64,000 bases of DNA, taken from a virus. Its lineage: Duplodnaviria; Caudoviricetes. The stretch covers positions 1,081-65,080 of IMG/VR virus record IMGVR_UViG_3300043429_000212; one strand, given 5' to 3'. The notes under the pieces were generated by a model. It was not told the origin of the DNA, made no database searches, and saw nothing but the letters and a program-made list of their open reading frames with translations. The translations under genes and the position numbers were made by a program. Shown here one piece after another: positions 1 through 58,994 of the stretch; position 1 is the stretch's first letter; each line of letters starts with the position of its first letter.

Positions 1-195
1 GTGCCGGTGAAGCCCATGCAGACTGTTCCGCTTCGCTACCTTCCGGCCCGGGCTCGGTCTCGTGTAAACGGTCAAGGTCAGCCTCGGCCTGGGCGAGTGC
101 ATCGAGCACGTCCCGCTGGCTCGCTCGACCCCGCTGCGGCCCAGGCTCGCCGTCCTTCCCTGTGGTTTTGTACATGGCTGTGTATCTGTCCAGTG

Positions 196-345
196 ATGTT
201 CACATTATCCACAGGATGTTCAAACAGGGCAAGTTATCCACAGCTGTGGATAAGCCTTAGATCTGCCTCATTTTTGAGCATTCACCTATGAAGCCCTGTG
301 GATAACTTTGTGAACAACTCGCTAGAAGCTCCGATCTATTTTTCT
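196..345. promoter_or_regulatory. oriC-like cluster of DnaA boxes
   Basis: Perfect TTATCCACA at 205-213 and 234-242; perfect TGTGGATAA at 245-253 and 297-305; degenerate boxes at 196-204 and 309-317; GATCTATTTTTCT at 333-345 resembles an E. coli oriC 13-mer. Confidence 0.8.
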
Positions 346-542
346 GAAGGGCAAGGTATGCCTGGACCCCTTGCGTCGATCCTGGGCCGTTCTAGCGCGT
401 TCTAGCGGCATGTACGTCCATACAGGTATAGCCCTTGGGTTTACTTGGTCATCTGTCCCTGCTACTCACGCGCGCGGGCGCACACGTTCGTTGGTCAGAG
501 CACCCGGCTCTGATCTGCTAGCCCTATCGACTCATCAGGGTA

Positions 543-571
543 TTGCACTAGCTCCCGTTTGCACGCACAAT
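543..571 (+). promoter_or_regulatory. sigma70-type promoter of left early operon
   Basis: TTGCAC-17 bp-CACAAT, followed by two short leader hairpins and RBS ACAGGAGG at 615-622. Confidence 0.55.
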
Positions 572-629
572 CGGGGCTCCCCGGTCGGGGACGCGCAGCA
601 CGGTGCTGCGACGGACAGGAGGTTCTGAG

Positions 630-1211
630 ATGACACGCGAAGACTGGCTTACCACCCTGATCGAAGAGGTCAGGCCCCTTTTCCCCGCCCACACTGGGCA
701 GTCCCTCCCCGCCCGCATCCGCGTCGCCTGCGGATTCCCCAGCAGCGCCCGCCGCAGCGGCGCGATTGGCGAGTGCTGGGCTGATGCCTCCAGCGCGGAC
801 GGCACGGTCGAGATCCTCATCTCGCCGGTCCTGGACGACGTCACCACGGTGGCGGCGACCCTGGTGCATGAACTCTGTCATGCCCTGCCGGGTTCGATGA
901 ACCACTCGAAGACCTTTGCGACCCACGCCGCCAACATGGGTCTGGCCCCCGGCGCCAAGGGCTGGAAAAGCACCGGCCCTGGCCCCGACTTCGACGCCCG
1001 CTATGGGGCGATCCTGGGCGCCCTGGGCGCCTACCCGCATGCGCAGTTGATCCTGTCGGCGAAGCCGGCGCAGACCACTCGCATGCTGAAGGCGACCTGC
1101 CCGTCTTGCGGGTTCACGATCAGGCTGACCCGCACCTGGGCCGAGAAAGGTCTGCCCATCTGCTCCCAGGATGGCGAGCAGTTCGTCCTTGAGTCCAACG
1201 ACGGAGAGTGA
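630..1211 (+). CDS. SprT-like zinc metalloprotease with C-terminal zinc ribbon
   Basis: LVHELCHA (HExxH) with downstream H, and CPSC..C; ATG 630 after a strong RBS. Confidence 0.75.
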   Translation: MTREDWLTTLIEEVRPLFPAHTGQSLPARIRVACGFPSSARRSGAIGECWADASSADGTVEILISPVLDDVTTVAATLVHELCHALPGSMNHSKTFATHAANMGLAPGAKGWKSTGPGPDFDARYGAILGALGAYPHAQLILSAKPAQTTRMLKATCPSCGFTIRLTRTWAEKGLPICSQDGEQFVLESNDGE

Positions 1212-1215
1212 CCCA

Positions 1216-2712
1216 ATGAACACCCGAGTCCTTCAGACCCTCCTAGCCCTGCCCGGGGCACAACTCGCCCGGGCCGCAAATGCCATCTGCGGACCTGCCG
1301 AGCGGACCAAGGTCGAGGCCGCGCAGGCCCTCGCGCAGAAGGTTTCACATGGAACAGTGAGCATGGACGACGTGCGGCTAGCGGCATCGAGCACGCCCCT
1401 CCAGCCGCCCGCCATGCCCGTCACCCTGGGCAAGCCGCAGCCCGCCTTCCAGCCGCCCCGCCCCTCCACTCCCCAGGCCGATCCCCGCATCGAGGCGACC
1501 GCCCAGGTCGCTGCCCGGACCGAGGCGGAGGTTCTCAGCCTCGCCACCGAGGTCCGGACGATCAAGGGAAATCTGGTCGGCGTCGCTCAGGCAGTGGCCC
1601 AGGCCAAGGTGCTGGCCGAGGCATCAGACCGCGCCTCGGCCACCATCATGGCCGGGATCAAGGCCGAGATCGAGGCACTGCGCGATGCTGGCCCGGAGAT
1701 CAGGACCGAGATCGCCGCCCAGGTGCGGACGGCACTCGCCCCCCTGATCGCCCAGGCCACGCCGGAGACGGCCCCGGCCATCGTCGCTGCCACTGCGGCG
1801 CCTATCGGTCGGGCTAGCTGCATGCATGCGTTCGGCGTCGACCTGCGCGACGCCCAGGGCGGACCAGTGATGGTCGATCTTTGGGACGACCCCGAGGCGG
1901 AGAGCATCGACCCCGCCTATATCTGGACCGAGTCCCTCCTGCGGCGCCTGATCCTGGGCACCGAGTCCAATGTGTGGCTAGGTGGCCCGAAGGGCACGGG
2001 CAAGAGCGAGGCCCTGCGCCAGTTCGCCGCCCGCACCGGGCGACGCTTTGTGCGGATCAACTTCCGCAAGTACAGCACCCAGGAGGACTACATCGGCGCC
2101 ACCGGCCTGGACGCGGGCAAGACGGGCTTCCAGCCCGGCCCCTTCCTGCGGGCCTACGTCCACCCGGGATGCGTGATCCTGTTGGACGAGGTCAGCAACA
2201 CCGACCCCGGCGAACTCGCCCCGCTCAACGGTCTTCTGGAGCCCCGCGCCGCCGTCACCATCGGCGGGTCAGTCTGGCGCCGCGCCTCGGGCGTGTTCAT
2301 CGCTGCCGCAGACAACACCCTCGGCACGGGTGACCAGTCGGGCCGCTATGCCGGCACTCGGGGGATGAACAGCGCCCTCATGGACCGGTTTGGGCTTGTC
2401 TCGCGCATGGACTACCTGCCGCGCAGGCTGGAGACGGACGCGCTGGTGCGCCATACAGGGTGCTCTCAGGCCCTCGCCGATCATGTGATGGACGCGATCC
2501 AGGTCTGCCGCGCCAAGGTCGATACCGGCGAGGTCATCGATGCACCGTCAATCCGCAGCGCGGTGGCATTCATTCGCGCCCTGCGACTGATGCCAGTAGA
2601 TGAAGCCTGGGCCGACACCATCGTGGCCCGCCAGCCGGTCGAGTCTCACCCGGCACTAGCAGCCGTTTACACGGCGACCATCAACCACGACACGATCAAG
2701 GGGGCACTGTGA
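1216..2712 (+). CDS. CobS/MoxR-like AAA+ ATPase
   Basis: Walker A GPKGTGKS, Walker B ILLDE, AADN sensor, ALMDRF arginine finger; adjacent to a vWA gene. Confidence 0.85.
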   Translation: MNTRVLQTLLALPGAQLARAANAICGPAERTKVEAAQALAQKVSHGTVSMDDVRLAASSTPLQPPAMPVTLGKPQPAFQPPRPSTPQADPRIEATAQVAARTEAEVLSLATEVRTIKGNLVGVAQAVAQAKVLAEASDRASATIMAGIKAEIEALRDAGPEIRTEIAAQVRTALAPLIAQATPETAPAIVAATAAPIGRASCMHAFGVDLRDAQGGPVMVDLWDDPEAESIDPAYIWTESLLRRLILGTESNVWLGGPKGTGKSEALRQFAARTGRRFVRINFRKYSTQEDYIGATGLDAGKTGFQPGPFLRAYVHPGCVILLDEVSNTDPGELAPLNGLLEPRAAVTIGGSVWRRASGVFIAAADNTLGTGDQSGRYAGTRGMNSALMDRFGLVSRMDYLPRRLETDALVRHTGCSQALADHVMDAIQVCRAKVDTGEVIDAPSIRSAVAFIRALRLMPVDEAWADTIVARQPVESHPALAAVYTATINHDTIKGAL

Positions 2713-4250
2713 TCGACACCATCAAAGCCCTGCTCGGGCGCCCGAGCATCCTGGGCTATCAGGCCCGGCACGGGCTGGAGACTTTCGCCCACGTCGCCTG
2801 CTCGGCCCTGGGTCTGCCACCCGTCCGGGTCCAGTGGGAGGCCGGCACCATGACTGCGGCAATCAACCGGCACGGGGATCTGATCCTGAGCGATATCCCC
2901 GACGATGCCCAGGTCGCCCGCAAGCAGTTCGCCCGCTGGGTCGGTTTTGTCGTGCATGAGTTGCTGCACAGGCGCTACACCGACTTCGGCGCCCACGACG
3001 GGCGTCAGTATGTTGACGCGCTGCACAACGCCATCGAGGACGCATGGATTGAGTCCCAGGCTATCCGCTCGGGACTGCTCGGCAATATCCGGGGGGTGTT
3101 GTCGGAACTGATCGACGGCATGACCACCGATGCCCTGGGGCAGGTGGCCGACTGGTCCGACCCTAAGCAGTACCCCTACAGCCTCGCCGTGTTTACACGC
3201 CCCCATGCGAGCATCAAGGCCCCGGTGCCTGGAACCCTGCTCCCCATTTGGCAGGAAGCCGCTCGCCGGGTCACCCAGGCGCAGAGCAGCGCCGATACCC
3301 TCGCCATCGCCCGATGGGTCTACGATCAACTGCGCCTCCCGCCGCACAAGCAGCAGCAGCAACAGCAGCAGCAAGCCGGCCAGGGCGACGGTCAAGGGGA
3401 CGGGCAGGGCGACGGGCAGGGGGACGGCCAGGAAAGCCCCCAGGCGCCTGATGCCGGGTCTGCCAAGGTGCCTTCCCCTGGGCAGGAAGCGGCTGACGTC
3501 GAGCCCGGCATGGAGGGTGGAGGCGGCGCCTCATTCGGGCCCACTGGGGTGCTGCCCCGCGCCGGCCTGACCAGCAGTGCCCGGTGGACCGATACATCCC
3601 CCGTGCCTGGGTCGCTGAGGTTTCAGATGCGCCGCCTCCTGGAGGCCAGCGCGACCGACGATATGGAGTCGCACCGACTGTCGGGAAACCTGGACACTCG
3701 CCGCCTCGCCGCCTCGGCCTGGACCGGGCGAGTCTTTGCCCGCCGCAGCGAAGAGGCGGGGATTGATGCCGCGGTGATCGTCCTGGTCGACATGTCCGGG
3801 TCAATGTCTGGCGAGCGGGCGAAGGTCGCGGTCCCCGCTGCAATGGCCCTGCTCGAAACAATCGAGTCTGCCCAGGCGCAGAGCATGGGGGTCGCGTTCG
3901 GGGACAACGTGGGCCCCTTCAAGACCTGGACCGAGACGGTACGCCGCATCGCCCCCCAGGCCGCCCGCCTCGCCATCGACGGCGGCACGAACGATGCTTT
4001 CTCGATCCGTTGGTGCCACGACCAACTGTTGCGCCACCCGGCGCCCAGGAAGGTGCTGATCGTCCTGACTGACGGCGTCGGTGATATGCGCGAGGCCCGC
4101 AACCAGATCAAGGCCGGCACTCGGCTCGGGATCCGGACCATTGGCATTGGGATCCAGGCCGACGTTCAGCAGGTGTACGGCCAGGGATCGCCCAACGTCG
4201 TCGCCCTGCCTGACCTTGCCAAGGTCGCCTTTCGGAGTGTCACCAAGTGA
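2709..4250 (+). CDS. CobT-like vWA-domain protein with N-terminal metallopeptidase-like domain
   Basis: VHELLH..NAIED at the N-terminus; MIDAS DMSGSM, GGT and LTDG at the C-terminus. Confidence 0.85.
   Translation: MIDTIKALLGRPSILGYQARHGLETFAHVACSALGLPPVRVQWEAGTMTAAINRHGDLILSDIPDDAQVARKQFARWVGFVVHELLHRRYTDFGAHDGRQYVDALHNAIEDAWIESQAIRSGLLGNIRGVLSELIDGMTTDALGQVADWSDPKQYPYSLAVFTRPHASIKAPVPGTLLPIWQEAARRVTQAQSSADTLAIARWVYDQLRLPPHKQQQQQQQQAGQGDGQGDGQGDGQGDGQESPQAPDAGSAKVPSPGQEAADVEPGMEGGGGASFGPTGVLPRAGLTSSARWTDTSPVPGSLRFQMRRLLEASATDDMESHRLSGNLDTRRLAASAWTGRVFARRSEEAGIDAAVIVLVDMSGSMSGERAKVAVPAAMALLETIESAQAQSMGVAFGDNVGPFKTWTETVRRIAPQAARLAIDGGTNDAFSIRWCHDQLLRHPAPRKVLIVLTDGVGDMREARNQIKAGTRLGIRTIGIGIQADVQQVYGQGSPNVVALPDLAKVAFRSVTK
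3351..3431 (+). repeat. coding low-complexity linker: poly-Gln followed by GDGQ x4
   Basis: CAG/CAA run followed by 12-bp imperfect tandem repeats. Confidence 0.9.
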
Positions 4251-4318
4251 ATGCTGACCGGGCCATGCTGGCCCTTTTCGTCCTGGTCCTGCTGCTGATG
4301 GTGGCAGGGATCATCTAA
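4247..4318 (+). CDS. 23-aa hydrophobic micropeptide MNADRAMLALFVLVLLLMVAGII
   Basis: GTGA start overlaps the upstream stop; fills the gap; single TM-like helix. Confidence 0.45.
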   Translation: MNADRAMLALFVLVLLLMVAGII

Positions 4319-4338
4319 CCCATCGAGGAGGTTTCCTG

Positions 4339-4683
4339 ATGTTCACGACCGATCTGTATGTGCGCCTGACGCACCACTTCGCCCCGGGATGGTCCGACCT
4401 GGACGACGACCGGCACGTAGGCATGGCCCGTCTTACCCCGTGGCGACTGGCCCGACCGTCTCAAGACTACGACGATGGTGGCGTTTACACGTCCACCGCC
4501 ACCGTCCGCACCCAGGACCGCCGCGCCGCCCGCGCCATCGAACGAGCCCTGGCCGATACCCTGGGGGGGTCGCGGTGCAGGCATGAGCACGACTGCTGCG
4601 GCTGCGCCTATCGACGGGTGGAGGCGAGGAGGGTCGGCAAGCACCGGTACGCGGTGCGTATGTCCGTCACGTTCAACTATTGA
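4339..4683 (+). CDS. hypothetical protein with CxHxHDCCGC motif
   Basis: RBS GAGGAGG; ORF in operon context. Confidence 0.7.
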   Translation: MFTTDLYVRLTHHFAPGWSDLDDDRHVGMARLTPWRLARPSQDYDDGGVYTSTATVRTQDRRAARAIERALADTLGGSRCRHEHDCCGCAYRRVEARRVGKHRYAVRMSVTFNY

Positions 4684-4704
4684 TTGTCAACAGGAGATGT
4701 AAAC

Positions 4705-5283
4705 ATGACACGTTACGAGATCGCCAAGCAGCAGCGGGTCGCCGTCCGCGCCGCCATCCGGGCACTGAACCTGCCCGGGGTCACGGTGGATGAGAACGAC
4801 TGCGGCTACATCCGAGTCGAGTCGCATGGGCAACTGTCCCTGCTTCCGATGTCCTTTGGACATCGGGATGAGTTCACCATCAGGGCTGACCACTACCGCG
4901 CCCGCCCCGGGCAGTACCCGCTGCGCGAAGGACAGTACAACCTGCCGGGGATCCTGCGGACGGTTCGCACCCTCGTGGAGCAGGCCCACGGTCGCAATCA
5001 AGCATGCGCTGCACGCTTGACAAAAGAAGAGTTGGAGGAGCACAACTACAAGGTTTCTGTTGCGTTGCTTCACGCAGTTGCATCGACGCATGGGTGGACC
5101 GTTAGCGTTGCTCTTGGGGAACCCCAGGTCTACATCAAGGGCTTGCGGATCACTGGCTCGCATGCCTACGCACACAGACTGCGCGTCCATTGGCTGGGTC
5201 AGGTGATCGCGGAGGCACGACCCGAGACGCTGCCCGCGTTCGTCGCAGCACTCGACAACTTCCTCAAGATGAATGAGGTGTAA
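4705..5283 (+). CDS. hypothetical protein
   Basis: RBS ACAGGAG, ATG 4705. Confidence 0.7.
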   Translation: MTRYEIAKQQRVAVRAAIRALNLPGVTVDENDCGYIRVESHGQLSLLPMSFGHRDEFTIRADHYRARPGQYPLREGQYNLPGILRTVRTLVEQAHGRNQACAARLTKEELEEHNYKVSVALLHAVASTHGWTVSVALGEPQVYIKGLRITGSHAYAHRLRVHWLGQVIAEARPETLPAFVAALDNFLKMNEV

Positions 5284-5285
5284 AC

Positions 5286-5657
5286 ATGAAGATCAAGACA
5301 GAAGACCTCCCCGGCCCCGCCCTTGACTGGGCGGTGGCGAAGTGTGAAGGCTGGGATAAATATCTGGAAAATGATTTGCCGGTTCGTTATGCGGATGCGG
5401 ATGGTCAGGACATAGCATGGAGCCCCTCAACCGACTGGTCCCAAGGTGGGCCGATCATCGAGCGCGAGGAGATCGGCATCCGGCGCAACGCCCCCTGCTC
5501 TGACGGCAGGCAATGGGAGGCGTTCGGCAGCATCACTGCCAAGGGTGCAGGGTATCGGTGGGGCTACGGTCCCACTCCCCTGGTCGCAGCCATGCGCTGC
5601 TACGTCGCAAGCAAACTAGGGGAAGAGGTTGAGATCCCCAACGAACTCATTGTGTAA
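5286..5657 (+). CDS. NinX/DUF2591-like phage protein
   Basis: LDWAVA, SPSTDWSQGGPIIERE and GPTPLVAAMRCYV motifs. Confidence 0.75.
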   Translation: MKIKTEDLPGPALDWAVAKCEGWDKYLENDLPVRYADADGQDIAWSPSTDWSQGGPIIEREEIGIRRNAPCSDGRQWEAFGSITAKGAGYRWGYGPTPLVAAMRCYVASKLGEEVEIPNELIV

Positions 5658-5671
5658 ACAGGAGAACAGAG

Positions 5672-6052
5672 ATGAACACGCACAAGCTCGCCATTGGGAT
5701 CATCCGCGAGGTGGCACTCGGGAAGCGGGAGGCATGGGATGTCCTCTGCCTTGTGGCGGAACATGAGCCCGACTCACTGTGCCGCGCCCTGGGGGTTTCG
5801 ATCCCCTCGGGCTGGACCCGTGCTGGGTCTGGCACTCATGCCAAGTGGGTGGACGACGTGATCACGGCCATGCCCCTCAATAAGGTCGAGGCTATCAAAA
5901 TCCTCCGAGCCAACCGGGGTCTCGGCTTGAAGGAAGCCAAGGATGTCTGTGACAAGGCGTCGGATCAGCACCGCATGGCGATGGATGCTTCCCTGATCAG
6001 GGAAACCATTGCCACCTGGAATGCCCCGAAGCCCAACGACATTCCTTTCTGA
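5672..6052 (+). CDS. protein with ribosomal protein bL12 (L7/L12) C-terminal-domain-like segment
   Basis: NKVEAIKILRANRGLGLKEAKDVCD matches the bL12 CTD signature; ends in NDIPF. Confidence 0.7.
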   Translation: MNTHKLAIGIIREVALGKREAWDVLCLVAEHEPDSLCRALGVSIPSGWTRAGSGTHAKWVDDVITAMPLNKVEAIKILRANRGLGLKEAKDVCDKASDQHRMAMDASLIRETIATWNAPKPNDIPF

Positions 6053-6285
6053 TGATCAAGACCATCAGCCACCATGCCCCTCAGTTTCTGAAGGAGGCAT
6101 GGCCCCTCCATCAGGAGTCCATCCTTCTGGTGCCGACCATTGACCACGTCCTGCCCGGCGAAGTGTTTATACAGTGGCAGGGCAAAGGCTACGGACTGTA
6201 TCGTCTGACAGAGGACCGGGCACCCAGGTATATCGGCCTGTACCGTGACCTGATGAGTGCCCTGTTCAAAGGGAAGCAGTTATGA
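6052..6285 (+). CDS. hypothetical protein
   Basis: Translationally coupled last gene of the operon. Confidence 0.55.
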   Translation: MIKTISHHAPQFLKEAWPLHQESILLVPTIDHVLPGEVFIQWQGKGYGLYRLTEDRAPRYIGLYRDLMSALFKGKQL

Positions 6286-9217: not shown

Positions 9218-9661
9218 CACTACCTCCTTCGCTTTAGGCAAGCCTCTGCCAAAGCCAGGGGTTGGGTGATCCCCCCTGTCTTGCTCTGTCCTTCCTGGAT
9301 GGAACCAAAGAAGAACTGTCTTCCTCCGTAATGCCTGTCATCCTCTGTATCGGATGCTGACCCATTGAGCAGGTGGGTAAGTCCTGCCGGCTGGTCCCTG
9401 CCGCCCCTACATCACCCTGTACGCATCGTTTGCTGCCTGTGCTGGAGGGCACATGCAGCCCGGTCCCCTGGATCACCGGCGTTGACAGGCTCGGGCACAT
9501 GCTCTGGCCCCGATGAGGTGTTTCTTGGGTTCGGCCCATGCAGGCCATCTGCTAACGCGCCCTGACGATCATCTGCACTGAACACCCCCGGCACCCGGAG
9601 CCAGAGGCTCAGTCTGGTTGTCCTGGGGTGAGAGCCCCGAGGGTGTTCGGTACAGACGATC
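9218..9661 (-). ncRNA. large structured non-coding RNA or 5' leader (~440 nt)
   Basis: Starts 6 nt after a predicted -10; 21-bp closing stem with G-U pairs favouring the - strand; many hairpins, a long-range 8-bp helix and an H-type pseudoknot; no credible ORF. Confidence 0.65.
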
Positions 9662-9666
9662 AGACC

Positions 9667-9717
9667 ATCCTACTGGATGTGATGGGGCTTTGCAAGCATG
9701 ATCTACTCGGCTACACT
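9667..9717. promoter_or_regulatory. divergent sigma70 promoters sharing a palindromic -35 (TTGCAA, 9690-9695)
   Basis: - strand TTGCAA-17-TAGGAT (-10 at 9672-9667); + strand TTGCAA-16-TACACT (-10 at 9712-9717). Confidence 0.65.
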
Positions 9718-9722
9718 GGCTT

Positions 9723-9803
9723 TCGCTCAGTTGCTTGAGCGATCTCCCTCCTGTGGCGCTGGGTAGCGCCTTTGACCCCGGCGGACACCGGGGTCTTTTT
9801 TTT
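9723..9803 (+). ncRNA. small RNA with exposed anti-Shine-Dalgarno tract and intrinsic terminator
   Basis: Hairpin TCGCTCA/TGAGCGA, single-stranded TCTCCCTCCTGT, hairpin GGCGCT/AGCGCC, terminator GACCCCGG/CCGGGGTC plus T8. Confidence 0.72.
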
Positions 9804-10167
9804 GCCCCGGCATCTCTGTGACCGTGATGACACAGCGAGGGCACTCCTTGTCTTGATGCCAGTAGATGTGCTTCTCCTTGACCTGCCTGTCGTTTAAATA
9901 GAGCTTTCCCTGGAGGAGGTCCAGGATCAGGCTCTCGTCAAGGTCTGGACGTCGGGAGGCGTACCAGATGTGGATCTCTACAGATACATCTAGTGCCGTG
10001 GGGTGACTGGCCGGGGCGCATTGCTGTTGAAACGACTCAGCGTAGGTCAGGGCCTTCTTGCTCTTGATGAGCCGGGACATGCTGCCGAACCGGACCAGCC
10101 TCCGGCTGTTGGCCTTGCTGGCGGGCTCTCCAAAAATTTCCCTTGTCTCGCAAAAAAGTGCTTGCAT
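9727..10167 (-). CDS. rusA: RusA-like Holliday junction resolvase
   Basis: GEPASKANSRR, RRPDLD and NDRQV motifs; start uncertain. Confidence 0.75.
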   Translation of the reverse strand: MQALFCETREIFGEPASKANSRRLVRFGSMSRLIKSKKALTYAESFQQQCAPASHPTALDVSVEIHIWYASRRPDLDESLILDLLQGKLYLNDRQVKEKHIYWHQDKECPRCVITVTEMPGQKKDPGVRRGQRRYPAPQEGDRSSN

Positions 10168-10190
10168 TCCTTCAGCACTAGCGATATGCT
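10162..10190 (+). promoter_or_regulatory. sigma70-type promoter of recombination operon
   Basis: TTGCAT-17 bp-TATGCT, then RBS ACAGGAGG at 10208-10215. Confidence 0.6.
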
Positions 10191-10220
10191 TTCTTCCGTC
10201 GCCACTCACAGGAGGTCTCC

Positions 10221-11096
10221 TTGAAGATCACAAACAACCACGGCGCACCAGCAACGCTGGTCGCTTTGGCGAACAAGAACCACTACTCGAAAGGGGCAGC
10301 AGACTACTCGATCACCGAGCTTCTGTCTCCCCCTCGTGTTCGCCGTTTGAGAGAACGGCACGATGCTCGCCTAGAGCAAGATGTCTCCGACATGCTTTGG
10401 TCCCTGCTCGGATCGGCACTCCATGTGGTTGCCGAGCGGGCCTCTGCGGATCAGCATGTCACAGAGGAGAGGATCTTTGCAGAAATCGACGGTGTCAAGG
10501 TGTCTGGCGCCATCGATCTGCAAGAGATGACCGAACAGGGAGTCATCATCACAGACTACAAGTTCACATCCGCCTACTCGGTGATGAACGAGAAGAAGGA
10601 GTGGGAAGAGCAACTCAACTTGTACAAGTGGCTGGTCGAGTCTAGGAAGCGAATTCCTGTGATCGGTCTACGGATCTGCGCCTTGATCCGTGACTTCTCC
10701 AGGCATGACCGCCGAGAGAACTACCCGGCCAGCCCCATCCACATGGTCGAGATCCCGATGTGGGACTCGGTCAAGGCCGAGGCGTTTGTGCGTGCCCGTT
10801 TACATCTGCACGCAGAAGCCAAGTTTGCCGATGCAATGGAAGAACCCCTTCCCCCTTGCAGCGACGAAGAGAGGTGGTTCTCTGAGACCACCTACGCCGT
10901 GAAGAAGGAGGGCAGGAAGACTGCCGTCCGTGTGTTCAAGACGATTGAAGAGGCCAAGGAGTTGGCCCAGAAGGAGAAAGGCTATGTCGAAACCCGAGCA
11001 GGAGAACCCCGCCGTTGCACCGGAAATTACTGCAACGTTGCCGAGTACTGCGATCAGTACCAATCAGAAGTCAGTGCAGGACTTGCTGAAACTTGA
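10221..11096 (+). CDS. PD-(D/E)XK (Cas4/RecB-like) exonuclease
   Basis: GSALH, SGAID, TDYK, QLNLY and C-terminal RC..YC..C; TTG start after a strong RBS. Confidence 0.8.
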   Translation: MKITNNHGAPATLVALANKNHYSKGAADYSITELLSPPRVRRLRERHDARLEQDVSDMLWSLLGSALHVVAERASADQHVTEERIFAEIDGVKVSGAIDLQEMTEQGVIITDYKFTSAYSVMNEKKEWEEQLNLYKWLVESRKRIPVIGLRICALIRDFSRHDRRENYPASPIHMVEIPMWDSVKAEAFVRARLHLHAEAKFADAMEEPLPPCSDEERWFSETTYAVKKEGRKTAVRVFKTIEEAKELAQKEKGYVETRAGEPRRCTGNYCNVAEYCDQYQSEVSAGLAET

Positions 11097-47389: not shown

Positions 47390-48130
47390 TCAGCCTATGA
47401 ACATCTGCCGGGGCACGAACCGTACCGCAGCCTTCTCACGGTCTTCGCTCGATGCACGGTCCCAGTCTTCGTCGTACTGAGCCTTCAGGATCTGGAGCCT
47501 CTCCATGCCGCCCGGGATCTTCATGCTCAGGTAATACGCCAGACCAGAGACCAAGCAAGGGATGAAGCGGAAGGGCACATCCTGGGTGGTGTCTCCACTC
47601 GCTCCCGCGTCCTGGATACGACGCAGATACCAGTAGACAAACTGATAGACACCCGTCTGATCAGGTGTAGGCCACACAGTGATGCTTGGCAGTGCCGTGG
47701 CGCTCGGGGAATAGCTGCTGGATGCCGGGTACGTCGCACCAGAGTTGCGGTTGACCAGCACCTGGATCGGACGAGCCTGTTGCAGCTTGTTCGGGATGGA
47801 CGAGTAGGTGCTGATGCTGATCCGCGTGATGGTCAGATCCACCTGAGTAGAGACGTTGCCCGCGCCCGTGCGGATGACATGCTCAAGGAGATCGACAGTG
47901 TCAGACGGGAGCGTGTAAGTGTTTGTGCCCTGCACCAGGGGAATCATCCCTTGGTTGAAGGTCCACATGTTTACACCACGGTTCGCCCAGTCTGCGAACA
48001 GCAGGTTCAGGGACCGCCGAGCCGTGCGCAGGTCATAGCCCGTGCGAAGCTCTGCACCGCAGCGTTCAAACGCTTCCTCGACCACTTCATTGAGGTCAAG
48101 GTTGAAGGTGGTGGTCCCTGAAGTCGGCAT
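47390..48130 (-). CDS. head-tail connector / tubular protein A-like
   Basis: EEAFERCG, ARRSLNLLFADWANRG, VWPTPD, PFRFIPCLVSGLAYYL. Confidence 0.7.
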   Translation of the reverse strand: MPTSGTTTFNLDLNEVVEEAFERCGAELRTGYDLRTARRSLNLLFADWANRGVNMWTFNQGMIPLVQGTNTYTLPSDTVDLLEHVIRTGAGNVSTQVDLTITRISISTYSSIPNKLQQARPIQVLVNRNSGATYPASSSYSPSATALPSITVWPTPDQTGVYQFVYWYLRRIQDAGASGDTTQDVPFRFIPCLVSGLAYYLSMKIPGGMERLQILKAQYDEDWDRASSEDREKAAVRFVPRQMFIG

Positions 48131-55357: not shown

Positions 55358-55413
55358 GAGTAACCCGACTGGTGCGCTTCTTCGAGAGGCGTGTCGGGTG
55401 TTCTTGCGCTTGA

Positions 55414-58593: not shown

Positions 58594-58595
58594 GT

Positions 58596-58994
58596 TTAAA
58601 CCCTCTGCAACCCACGCGGGTCTTGGATAACGGCCTCAACGCTGTCGTCGTTGATGATGCGGAACTCCCGCCCGTGGATCTTCAGTCGAGTGCCGCTGTT
58701 CGGGCGGACAAGGATGAAGTCGCCCACCTTGCAGGACGGGCCGGAGGGGAAGCGGATCGGGTCTTTGTAGCAATCCGGACCCATCTTGACGACGAACAGG
58801 ACGGGAGACAGCACTTCCTCGAAGTGCATCGTCTGTCCAGACTTGAGAATGCCGCTCTCAAAGGACTCCTCGGCCTCTGGAAGCATGCACAGGAGGTGGT
58901 AGGTCACCGGATCTGGGACTTGCCTTGCCTTTTCCTCTGCGGTTTCAGGCAAAACGGACTCTGACGTTCCATCAGACAGGATCAGTTCACTCAT
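58596..58994 (-). CDS. GroES-like co-chaperonin
   Basis: ESGIL, VVKMGPD, KVGDFIL, FRIINDDSVEAVI. Confidence 0.8.
   Translation of the reverse strand: MSELILSDGTSESVLPETAEEKARQVPDPVTYHLLCMLPEAEESFESGILKSGQTMHFEEVLSPVLFVVKMGPDCYKDPIRFPSGPSCKVGDFILVRPNSGTRLKIHGREFRIINDDSVEAVIQDPRGLQRV

Follow-up and report, generated by a model that had tools for sequence, protein, structure and literature searches.

A probable new family of phage small RNAs predicted to repress translation of recombination and replication genes

Known examples of small RNAs that phages direct at genes of their own come from a few temperate model phages. Lambda OOP and P22 sar are short phage RNAs that act solely on the transcript they overlap, and the c4 RNA, similar in size to the element described here, is excised from the transcript it controls, blocks translation and serves prophage immunity. 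In T4, the RegB endoribonuclease inactivates a set of phage mRNAs via their GGAG ribosome sites and thereby times expression. The c4 RNA of P1 and P7 is described as pairing around the ribosome site of a phage mRNA and as differing between both phages (PMC12197685); the cuckoo RNAs of alphaproteobacteria are described as two to four adjacent hairpins with CCUCCUCCC in each loop, thought to occlude ribosome sites (PMC4615179); and a 2023 catalogue reports 8,495 candidate structured RNAs from IMG/VR, with six candidates upstream of RusA genes (PMC10690425). Here we analyse a 64,000-nucleotide (nt) stretch of phage DNA (the window), comprising bases 1081–65080 of the 65,080-bp virus record IMGVR_UViG_3300043429_000212, which is rated 100% complete. 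An element at 9723–9803 on its + strand probably represents a genuine, new family of phage small RNAs acting as translational repressors of replication and recombination genes.

The balance of evidence leans towards 9723–9803 (+) being a stand-alone small-RNA gene of about 80 nt, the seed of which pairs with the Shine–Dalgarno region of an exonuclease gene and lowers its translation. The element comprises the following parts:

9690–9717, + strand: sigma-70-like promoter site (TTGCAA at 9690–9695, 16-nt spacer, TACACT at 9712–9717)
9723–9803, + strand: predicted small RNA of about 78–81 nt, from its fold and a covariance model, with inferred ends
9723–9742, + strand: hairpin 1, with loop UUGC, carrying CAGUUGCU, a motif conserved in the type-1 RNAs (defined below) of other clades
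9743–9754, + strand: unpaired CU-rich seed UCUCCCUCCUGU, 12 nt
9755–9770, + strand: hairpin 2 (GGCGCU / GGGU / AGCGCC)
9774–9803, + strand: intrinsic terminator with an 8-bp stem and 6-nt loop (9774–9795) and U8 (9796–9803)

A sequence-only reading of the window had placed a promoter, a hairpin, an unpaired stretch, a second hairpin and a terminator with U8 here, and all of them are present. The 9723–9803 RNA folds with a minimum free energy of −37.8 kcal/mol (z = −3.66), which 1 of 200 shuffles equalled, and leaves the seed with an unpaired probability of about 0.99; opening CCUCCUGU costs 0.05 kcal/mol. The terminator scan called the terminator (8 pairs, 7 of them G–C, tail TTTTTTTT), and no + strand gene lies upstream for it to serve. 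The promoter hexamers match 8 of 12 consensus positions, below the threshold of 9/12, which is why the promoter scan did not list the site. The element is single copy in the record. A short-peptide reading of this RNA was rejected, as it has no ATG and no ribosome site and contains indels among relatives.

The element is kept in eight other related viral contigs, giving five distinct sequences, and the covariance model R2, used to score the window and related loci, returned 96–107 bits in the window and eight related loci. Across the nine-sequence alignment TTGCAAG is invariant and the −10 element reads TACACT or TATCCT; the seed and the U-run are also invariant, loop lengths vary, and the terminator retains its stem with a loop of 6 or 12 nt. 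All 100 pair cells form standard pairs, and 4 of the 20 pairs change on both sides, with at least one in each helix: A–U to U–G in hairpin 1, G–C to A–U and U–A to C–G or U–G in hairpin 2, and A–U to G–C in the terminator stem. None of 500 shuffles reached the observed paired percentage or covariation score, 26 of 500 reached the observed count of pairs changed on both sides, and sliding the stem partners lowered pairing to 34–50%. Searching viral contigs with a hairpin-1 pattern gave 29 loci, of which the real ones were the eight contigs already known; of 120 metagenome loci fetched with the same pattern, none had a T-run within 90 nt, indicating that all were chance matches. These comparisons support the view that the small RNA resembles a stand-alone gene with a covarying structure and a conserved promoter and terminator.

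The seed faces the start of a recombination operon, and the features concerned are:

10162–10190, + strand: inferred promoter-like site of the exonuclease operon (TTGCAT, 17 nt, TATGCT), unlisted by the promoter scan
10207–10223, + strand: exonuclease start region, the best-supported target (CACAGGAGG at 10207–10215, TTG start at 10221)
10221–11096, + strand: PD-(D/E)XK exonuclease gene (Pfam PDDEXK_1, 6.9e-08)

Within the seed, CCTCCTGT (9747–9754) is complementary to ACAGGAGG at 615–622 and at 10208–10215; both exact 8-nt complements had been claimed, and both are there. At the exonuclease site the match extends to 9 nt (CACAGGAGG against 9747–9755), and, if the inferred promoter is correct, the target would sit in a 5′ leader of about 23 nt. 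The further pairing to CGCC that had been proposed at this site did not hold up: relatives' leaders lack CGCC, and the pairing would require opening hairpin 2. The match is retained in all nine contigs of the window's clade (8 nt instead of 9 in L007), and the 17 nt before the exonuclease start are identical in the clade save for one base in L007, whereas the leader further upstream differs. The start region (10207–10224) also contains a near-palindrome, AGGAGGTCTCCT, in which the Shine–Dalgarno bases could form a 4-bp hairpin. AGGAG is consequently visible on both strands, and a GTG following the mirrored site, at 10209 (−), is unlikely to be a start, because the codons that follow are unconserved in relatives.

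We fetched 80 loci around exonuclease relatives (47–88% identity), which with the window gave 81 sources. A terminator-ended unit was called by the terminator scan on the exonuclease strand, 395–520 nt upstream of the gene, in 61 of the 81; by eye, 5 of 13 sources missed by the scan also have it (L015, L016, L017, L047 and L064), no unit was seen by eye in L040 and L079–L081, and three further loci were too short. L026, L032, L034, L072 and L074–L076 have a unit on the other strand. At 29–74 nt before the terminator stem, 24 of 27 clade representatives have a TAnnnT hexamer matching the −10 consensus at four or more of six positions, compared with 24% of random 65-nt windows from these loci, and 13 of 27 have one matching at five or more, compared with 3.9%. 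The units fall into two types. Type 1, to which the window belongs, combines a hairpin with the motif CAGUUG(C/U), a CU-rich stretch, in some cases another hairpin, and a terminator; type 2 (L040–L077) has a 5′ stretch with AGCCUCC or AGCCCCC, a hairpin GACC-AGUA-GGUC and a terminator. R2 detects type-1 relatives weakly, at 14–27 bits, yet at the syntenic position. The complement of the CAGUUGC motif was not enriched (11 found, 13 expected).

Target specificity was assessed by testing the 60 nt that precede each terminator against exonuclease start regions (−25 to +3) from the own and from other clades, using one representative per cluster and permuting the assignment; start regions came from tblastn edges and a crude start-codon rule, and kinship was roughly controlled by the clustering of hand-picked representatives. 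In type 1, the longest perfect complement averaged 6.47 nt to the own and 5.28 nt to foreign start regions (15 clusters, p = 3e-4), and over all 26 clusters the same test gave p = 2e-5. Duplex energies agreed, with p = 0.001 within type 1 and p = 5e-5 over 22 clusters. Covariation of seed and ribosome-binding site across related phages, which the sequence-only reading had named as a check on its proposal, is thus seen for the exonuclease start in type 1. The clearest case is L037, in which CUACUCCUGUG faces CACAGGAGUAG at 11 of 11 positions; in the window, CCUCCUGUG faces CACAGGAGG at 9 of 9. L074 and L076 have their sole unit on the opposite strand, yet an 8-nt match to the exonuclease start region (CACUGGAG) persists, which fits an RNA-level match, not a DNA inverted repeat or a purely cis-antisense role. 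Ranked among the crude start regions of each locus, the exonuclease start had a mean fractional rank of 0.36, a weak signal (n = 20, p = 0.017; start uncalled in five loci).

Type-2 seeds match a second gene. They pair without mismatch over 8–13 nt with the start region of the primase-helicase gene (UCGGAGGCUAAUC in L041–L046, AGGAGGCUUAAU in L066, L067 and L070, and UGGAGGCUCAAU in L047), over 13 nt in the case of L046, with a mean of 10.8 nt to the own and 7.9 nt to foreign start regions (nine clusters, p = 1e-4; by energy, p = 5.6e-4) after exclusion of L046 and L070, which nearly duplicate L041 and L067. The seed variants UUAGCC, UAAGCC, UGAGCC and GCCCCC pair with the target variants GGCUAA, GGCUUA, GGCUCA and GGGGGC, such that U, A or G in the seed stands opposite A, U or C, respectively, as the variable target base after GGCU, and GCCCCC stands opposite GGGGGC and GAGGGGC; L048 carries a G-rich variant. 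Copies of the matching 9-mer number 4–6 per 30–46-kb record, and its reversed pattern is absent. Beyond the RNA gene and the two start regions, five of six further copies checked precede the start codon of an open reading frame (ORF) of at least 30 amino acids (aa), as do three of the four variant 9-mer copies found in two other records, the fourth lying on the antisense strand of the RNA gene. The ORFs behind these copies include small ORFs and a homologue of the window's cobS-like gene, and this pattern across type-2 genes indicates that more than one target is possible. For type-1 seeds, the primase-helicase comparison gave p = 0.079 (start present in the locus for 11 of 15 representatives), and the window's own primase-helicase start has a weak ribosome site and no seed match. 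From these comparisons, the RNA appears to belong to a broad undescribed family with seeds that match the starts of the phage's own recombination, replication and a few other genes, and the type-2 relatives make the proposed mechanism more credible.

Several observations weigh against the exonuclease start as target of the window's RNA. CU-rich stretches generally pair with strong Shine–Dalgarno sites, and the six copies of ACAGGAGG compare with 2.90 expected (s.d. 1.54), with 5 of 100 shuffles giving at least six; by itself, the 8-mer coincidence in this genome is within chance. The ninth pair needs hairpin 2 to be opened, at 3.5 kcal/mol, giving a net predicted energy of about −6 kcal/mol, and among the window's 187 crude start regions, ranked by seed alone, that of the exonuclease comes 8th. 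In five of the 15 type-1 clusters the perfect match to the own exonuclease start region is at most 5 nt long, type 2 alone shows no clade-specific exonuclease match (p = 0.30 by length; p = 0.075 by energy), and the cluster representatives were chosen by the author with no blind procedure. The promoter is weak and fails the promoter scan. Four metatranscriptome runs have no cover over 9608–10009; they consist of contigs only, which cannot show a small RNA, and are uninformative either way. A duplex scan of the whole pre-terminator RNA (6-mer prefilter, no accessibility term) scored many sites above the exonuclease start because the G+C-rich hairpin arms pair indiscriminately, and it was rejected as a measure.

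The other sites that the seed could recognize in the window are less well supported:

615–632, + strand: start region of the phrog_6361 gene, the first gene after a 338-nt gap, a candidate second target (ACAGGAGG, then ATG at 630)
4690–4707, + strand: weak candidate target, ACAGGAG before ATG 4705 (rank 68 of 187)
5658–5674, + strand: weak candidate target, ACAGGAG before ATG 5672 (rank 37 of 187)

ACAGGAG does precede the genes at 4705 and 5672, as had been noted. The start region at 630 ranks 10th of 187 by seed alone. Its ACAGGAGG is retained in four relatives (L100 and L102–L104) and reduced to CAGGAGG in the L002 contig and AGGAG in the L006 contig, both of which carry an identical seed; no match was found at the left-operon site in more distant clades. 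Predicted net pairing energies are modest, at −6 to −10 kcal/mol. The proposal that the RNA matches the first gene of both operons therefore divides: the exonuclease site is kept in nine of nine clade contigs and changes with the seed, but the left-operon site is partly lost in L002 and L006. For this phage, comparative support extends to the exonuclease site only. The broader proposal of an RNA-only repressor of phage early operons fared similarly, gaining from the covarying exonuclease match but standing on weaker ground at the left operon. A role in carrier state or immunity, which the sequence-only reading had also raised, gains no support from the record, in which no tyrosine integrase was found. 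One further window site, the start region of a 246-aa ORF at 48130 (−), carries GCAGGAGGCTTAAATG, a type-2 'signature' ribosome site, and has the best seed-only duplex score in the window.

The comparisons above show structure, conservation, stem covariation, seed accessibility and clade-specific seed–target complementarity; that the RNA is transcribed, that it pairs in the cell and that its effect is repressive, we infer. In the mechanism we propose, host RNA polymerase would start at the weak sigma-70-like promoter and stop at the U8 terminator, and the two hairpins would keep the 12-nt CU-rich stretch single-stranded. The exposed stretch would pair with the Shine–Dalgarno region (CACAGGAGG) of the exonuclease mRNA, encoded in the divergent recombination operon 420 nt away, and pairing would exclude the 30S subunit and block initiation, yielding less exonuclease and probably less of the annealing protein encoded behind it. 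Repression is preferred to activation because the match falls on the ribosome site. As the RNA gene is convergent to the RusA-like gene, its RNA would be fully complementary to any leftward read-through transcript, which might be cut or might soak up the RNA; cis cleavage, interference and titration may thus join the circuit.

The main rival reading, which is compatible with seed pairing, attributes the function to this convergent arrangement. As with lambda OOP, the RNA would pair over its whole length with the leftward RusA-to-replication transcript, causing cleavage, or convergent transcription would interfere, and the exonuclease match would be a by-product of a CU-rich sequence. The gene concerned is:

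9727–10167 (ORF 9727–10209), − strand: RusA-like gene, probable ATG at 10167 (Pfam RusA, 9.1e-06, 26.7 bits against a cut-off of 22.8)

The Pfam match covers residues 27–130 of 160. That the RNA is antisense to the rusA-like 3′ end proved correct, the overlap comprising the last 27–30 codons of ORF 9727–10209 (−), and the convergent overlap with a neighbour's 3′ end, with an own promoter-like site and an own terminator, is what is found in the lambda OOP kind of cis-antisense RNA. No leftward terminator is listed between 9500 and 9800, making read-through likely, and the arrangement is convergent in the 61 of 81 sources with a scan-called unit. However, cis action leaves the joint change of the seed with the exonuclease or primase-helicase start unexplained. 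The loci with a unit on the other strand have no antisense to leftward transcripts, and the exonuclease match persists in two of them, L074 and L076. The overlapped tail lacks conservation: its reading frame differs among the window, L002, L003 and L006, and because indels shift this overlapping frame, the conservation of the element is not protein-coding; the RusA-like ORF of seven other clades has its stop no later than the terminator. As a replacement for seed pairing, we consider cis action unlikely.

Less probable still is a general anti-Shine–Dalgarno RNA, resembling the 3′ end of 16S rRNA, that would act on host and/or phage ribosome sites as a host shut-off or a global switch. The seed contains CCUCC, which can pair with GGAGG wherever it occurs, ACAGGAG(G) is found in four of the window's start regions, several genes in type-2 phages have a matching site, and the best sub-threshold Rfam matches are Burkholderia CU-rich small-RNA families. 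Complementarity nonetheless reaches past the Shine–Dalgarno core into clade-specific flanks that covary, and the matching 9-mers are rare, at the 4–6 per record given above. The absence of any functional RNA, with a spacer that holds a terminator and fortuitous hairpins, or a protein-bound DNA inverted repeat, and a ribosome-site match by chance, would be consistent with the weak, unlisted promoter, the lack of cover in assembled RNA contigs (which cannot show a small RNA) and the 8-mer count, but is very improbable given compensatory changes in all three stems with no pair broken, a promoter-like hexamer in 24 of 27 clades, a terminator with no upstream + strand gene to serve and, unexpectedly for a DNA inverted repeat, complementarity that survives in units on the other strand.

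Beyond repression of the exonuclease gene, we entertain, tentatively and with more doubt than confidence, a lock-and-key RNA switch, in which one small RNA matches clade-specific 'signature' ribosome-binding sites of the exonuclease, primase-helicase and cobS-like genes and of small ORFs. With RNA and sites drifting jointly from clade to clade, the RNA could act as an off-switch only for the replication–recombination module of its own kind. If so, it would be an RNA-only timing device, or a means of excluding co-infecting relatives, in phages seemingly without a lysogeny module; no tyrosine integrase (PF00589) was found in the 65-kb record. The natural compensatory variants are ready-made specificity controls. 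Should pairing be confirmed, they would supply orthogonal pairs of RNA and ribosome site and a handle on early-gene timing in lytic environmental phages.

DNA runs containing the stretch are freshwater or lake metagenomes. A rightward block (630–6285) encodes the phrog_6361 protein, a cobS-like ATPase, a cobT-like protein and small ORFs, with proteins matching phage families; a leftward block runs from the RusA-like gene (9727–10167) through to the primase-helicase gene (8136–6439); and a rightward recombination block is headed by the exonuclease gene, followed by a gene for a Sak-type single-strand annealing protein (Pfam SSAP_Sak, 3e-36). G+C content is 62–68% in the cobS/cobT-like block (window 1–6000) and 54–60% across the remaining phage. 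Exonuclease identity to the nearest cultured phages is 39.7%, and among ten related loci in binned genomes the host labels conflict (two betaproteobacteria, three Bacteroidetes/Bacteroidales, one archaeon and others). Planktothrix phage Pag-Yong1 (OL906435.1; L321:3068–3455) has an annotated 390-nt gap upstream of a Cas4-family exonuclease gene; judged by eye, the gap apparently encodes an unannotated RusA-like protein on the opposite strand, and no comparable small-RNA unit was found in that phage. Elsewhere in the window, 55363–55398 (−) gives a borderline match to the Rfam abiF RNA motif (37.7 bits, gathering 37, E = 0.0031).

Further RNA-like elements occur in the same spacer of related phages. 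Type-2 phages (L041–L049, L054–L070 and L077) carry a second terminator-ended unit on the minus strand, about 575–710 nt upstream of the exonuclease gene and back to back with the first, many with a CU-rich hairpin loop and the type-1 GCAGUUGCC motif. Minus-strand units showed no clade-specific match to exonuclease or primase-helicase start regions (11 clusters, p = 0.45). In 9 of 18 related loci (L027:1964–2089(−), L077:2138–2256(−), L041:1031–1146(−), L070, L047, L067, L066, L045 and L054), Betaproteobacteria-1 RNA (RF02932) scores 65–88 bits (gathering 49.4) on the leftward strand, about 750–900 nt upstream of the exonuclease gene and adjoining the small-RNA units; the Rfam scan found no such match in the window. 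These matches hint at a noncoding-RNA gene cluster in these phages and at betaproteobacterial hosts. A palindrome, GTTTAAAC, occurs in 2–13 copies per locus of about 4–7 kb among relatives L009–L077, often a few bases before a ribosome site or near small-RNA promoters, as at a fixed position about 180–190 nt upstream of the exonuclease gene, and could be a promoter, operator or processing signal. It is lacking in the window's clade, with one copy in 64 kb (58594–58601) and none in L002–L008. One relative has a tRNA gene within this spacer region (L018:2284–2355 (−), 61.4 bits).

How does the element compare with described RNAs? The Rfam search that the sequence-only reading had proposed assigned it to no family: at the gathering thresholds of Rfam 15 none fits, and the nearest families reach less than half their gathering scores. 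Allowing E values up to 10, 18 matches fall within 9650–9850, including anti-hemB / Burkholderia RNA 7 (RF02837; 22.2 bits, E = 0.0026, gathering 49.5), the Betaproteobacteria toxic small RNA (RF02278; 19.5 bits, E = 0.067, 9741–9802 (+), gathering 50) and ncS54 (RF02871; 17.5 bits, gathering 43); no C4 family is among them. In the literature searched we found no description of this RNA family, and the 2023 catalogue may contain it as an unnamed candidate (PMC10690425). By the features expected of a trans-acting small RNA, the family has a terminator (61 of 81 sources) and an accessible seed with a covarying target match; a putative own promoter is the 8/12 consensus site, unlisted by the promoter scan and conserved in the clade, and a −10-like hexamer stands in 24 of 27 clades.

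The Burkholderia CU-rich small RNAs, the best Rfam near-matches, likewise place a CU-rich anti-Shine–Dalgarno stretch before a terminator, but are chromosomal bacterial genes, not phage genes. Cuckoo RNAs as described share a CU-rich anti-Shine–Dalgarno motif; unlike them, the phage RNA has a single CU-rich stretch, UCUCCCUCCUGU, of different sequence, lying between hairpins with loops UUGC and GGGU. RegB is a protein nuclease, whereas the agent proposed here is an RNA that would recognize longer, clade-specific sites. Like lambda OOP and P22 sar, which have their own promoter and terminator, the RNA has a putative promoter and a terminator of its own and runs antisense to a neighbour's end or to the junction that follows it; unlike them, it has a conserved covarying match to start regions 0.4–2 kb away on other transcripts. 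From what is described of it, the nearest known system in working principle appears to be the c4 antisense RNA (immI) of P1 and P7. The element differs from c4 in having its own promoter-like site and terminator, in targets that would be recombination and replication genes and in a record with no PF00589 integrase. In both cases a phage-encoded RNA of similar size has an exposed sequence that pairs, or here is predicted to pair, near the ribosome-binding site of an mRNA made elsewhere in the genome region, and matched changes in RNA and target set, or here would set, specificity between related phages—a principle that would here extend to a widespread syntenic family in uncultured freshwater phages, aimed at their recombination and replication genes.

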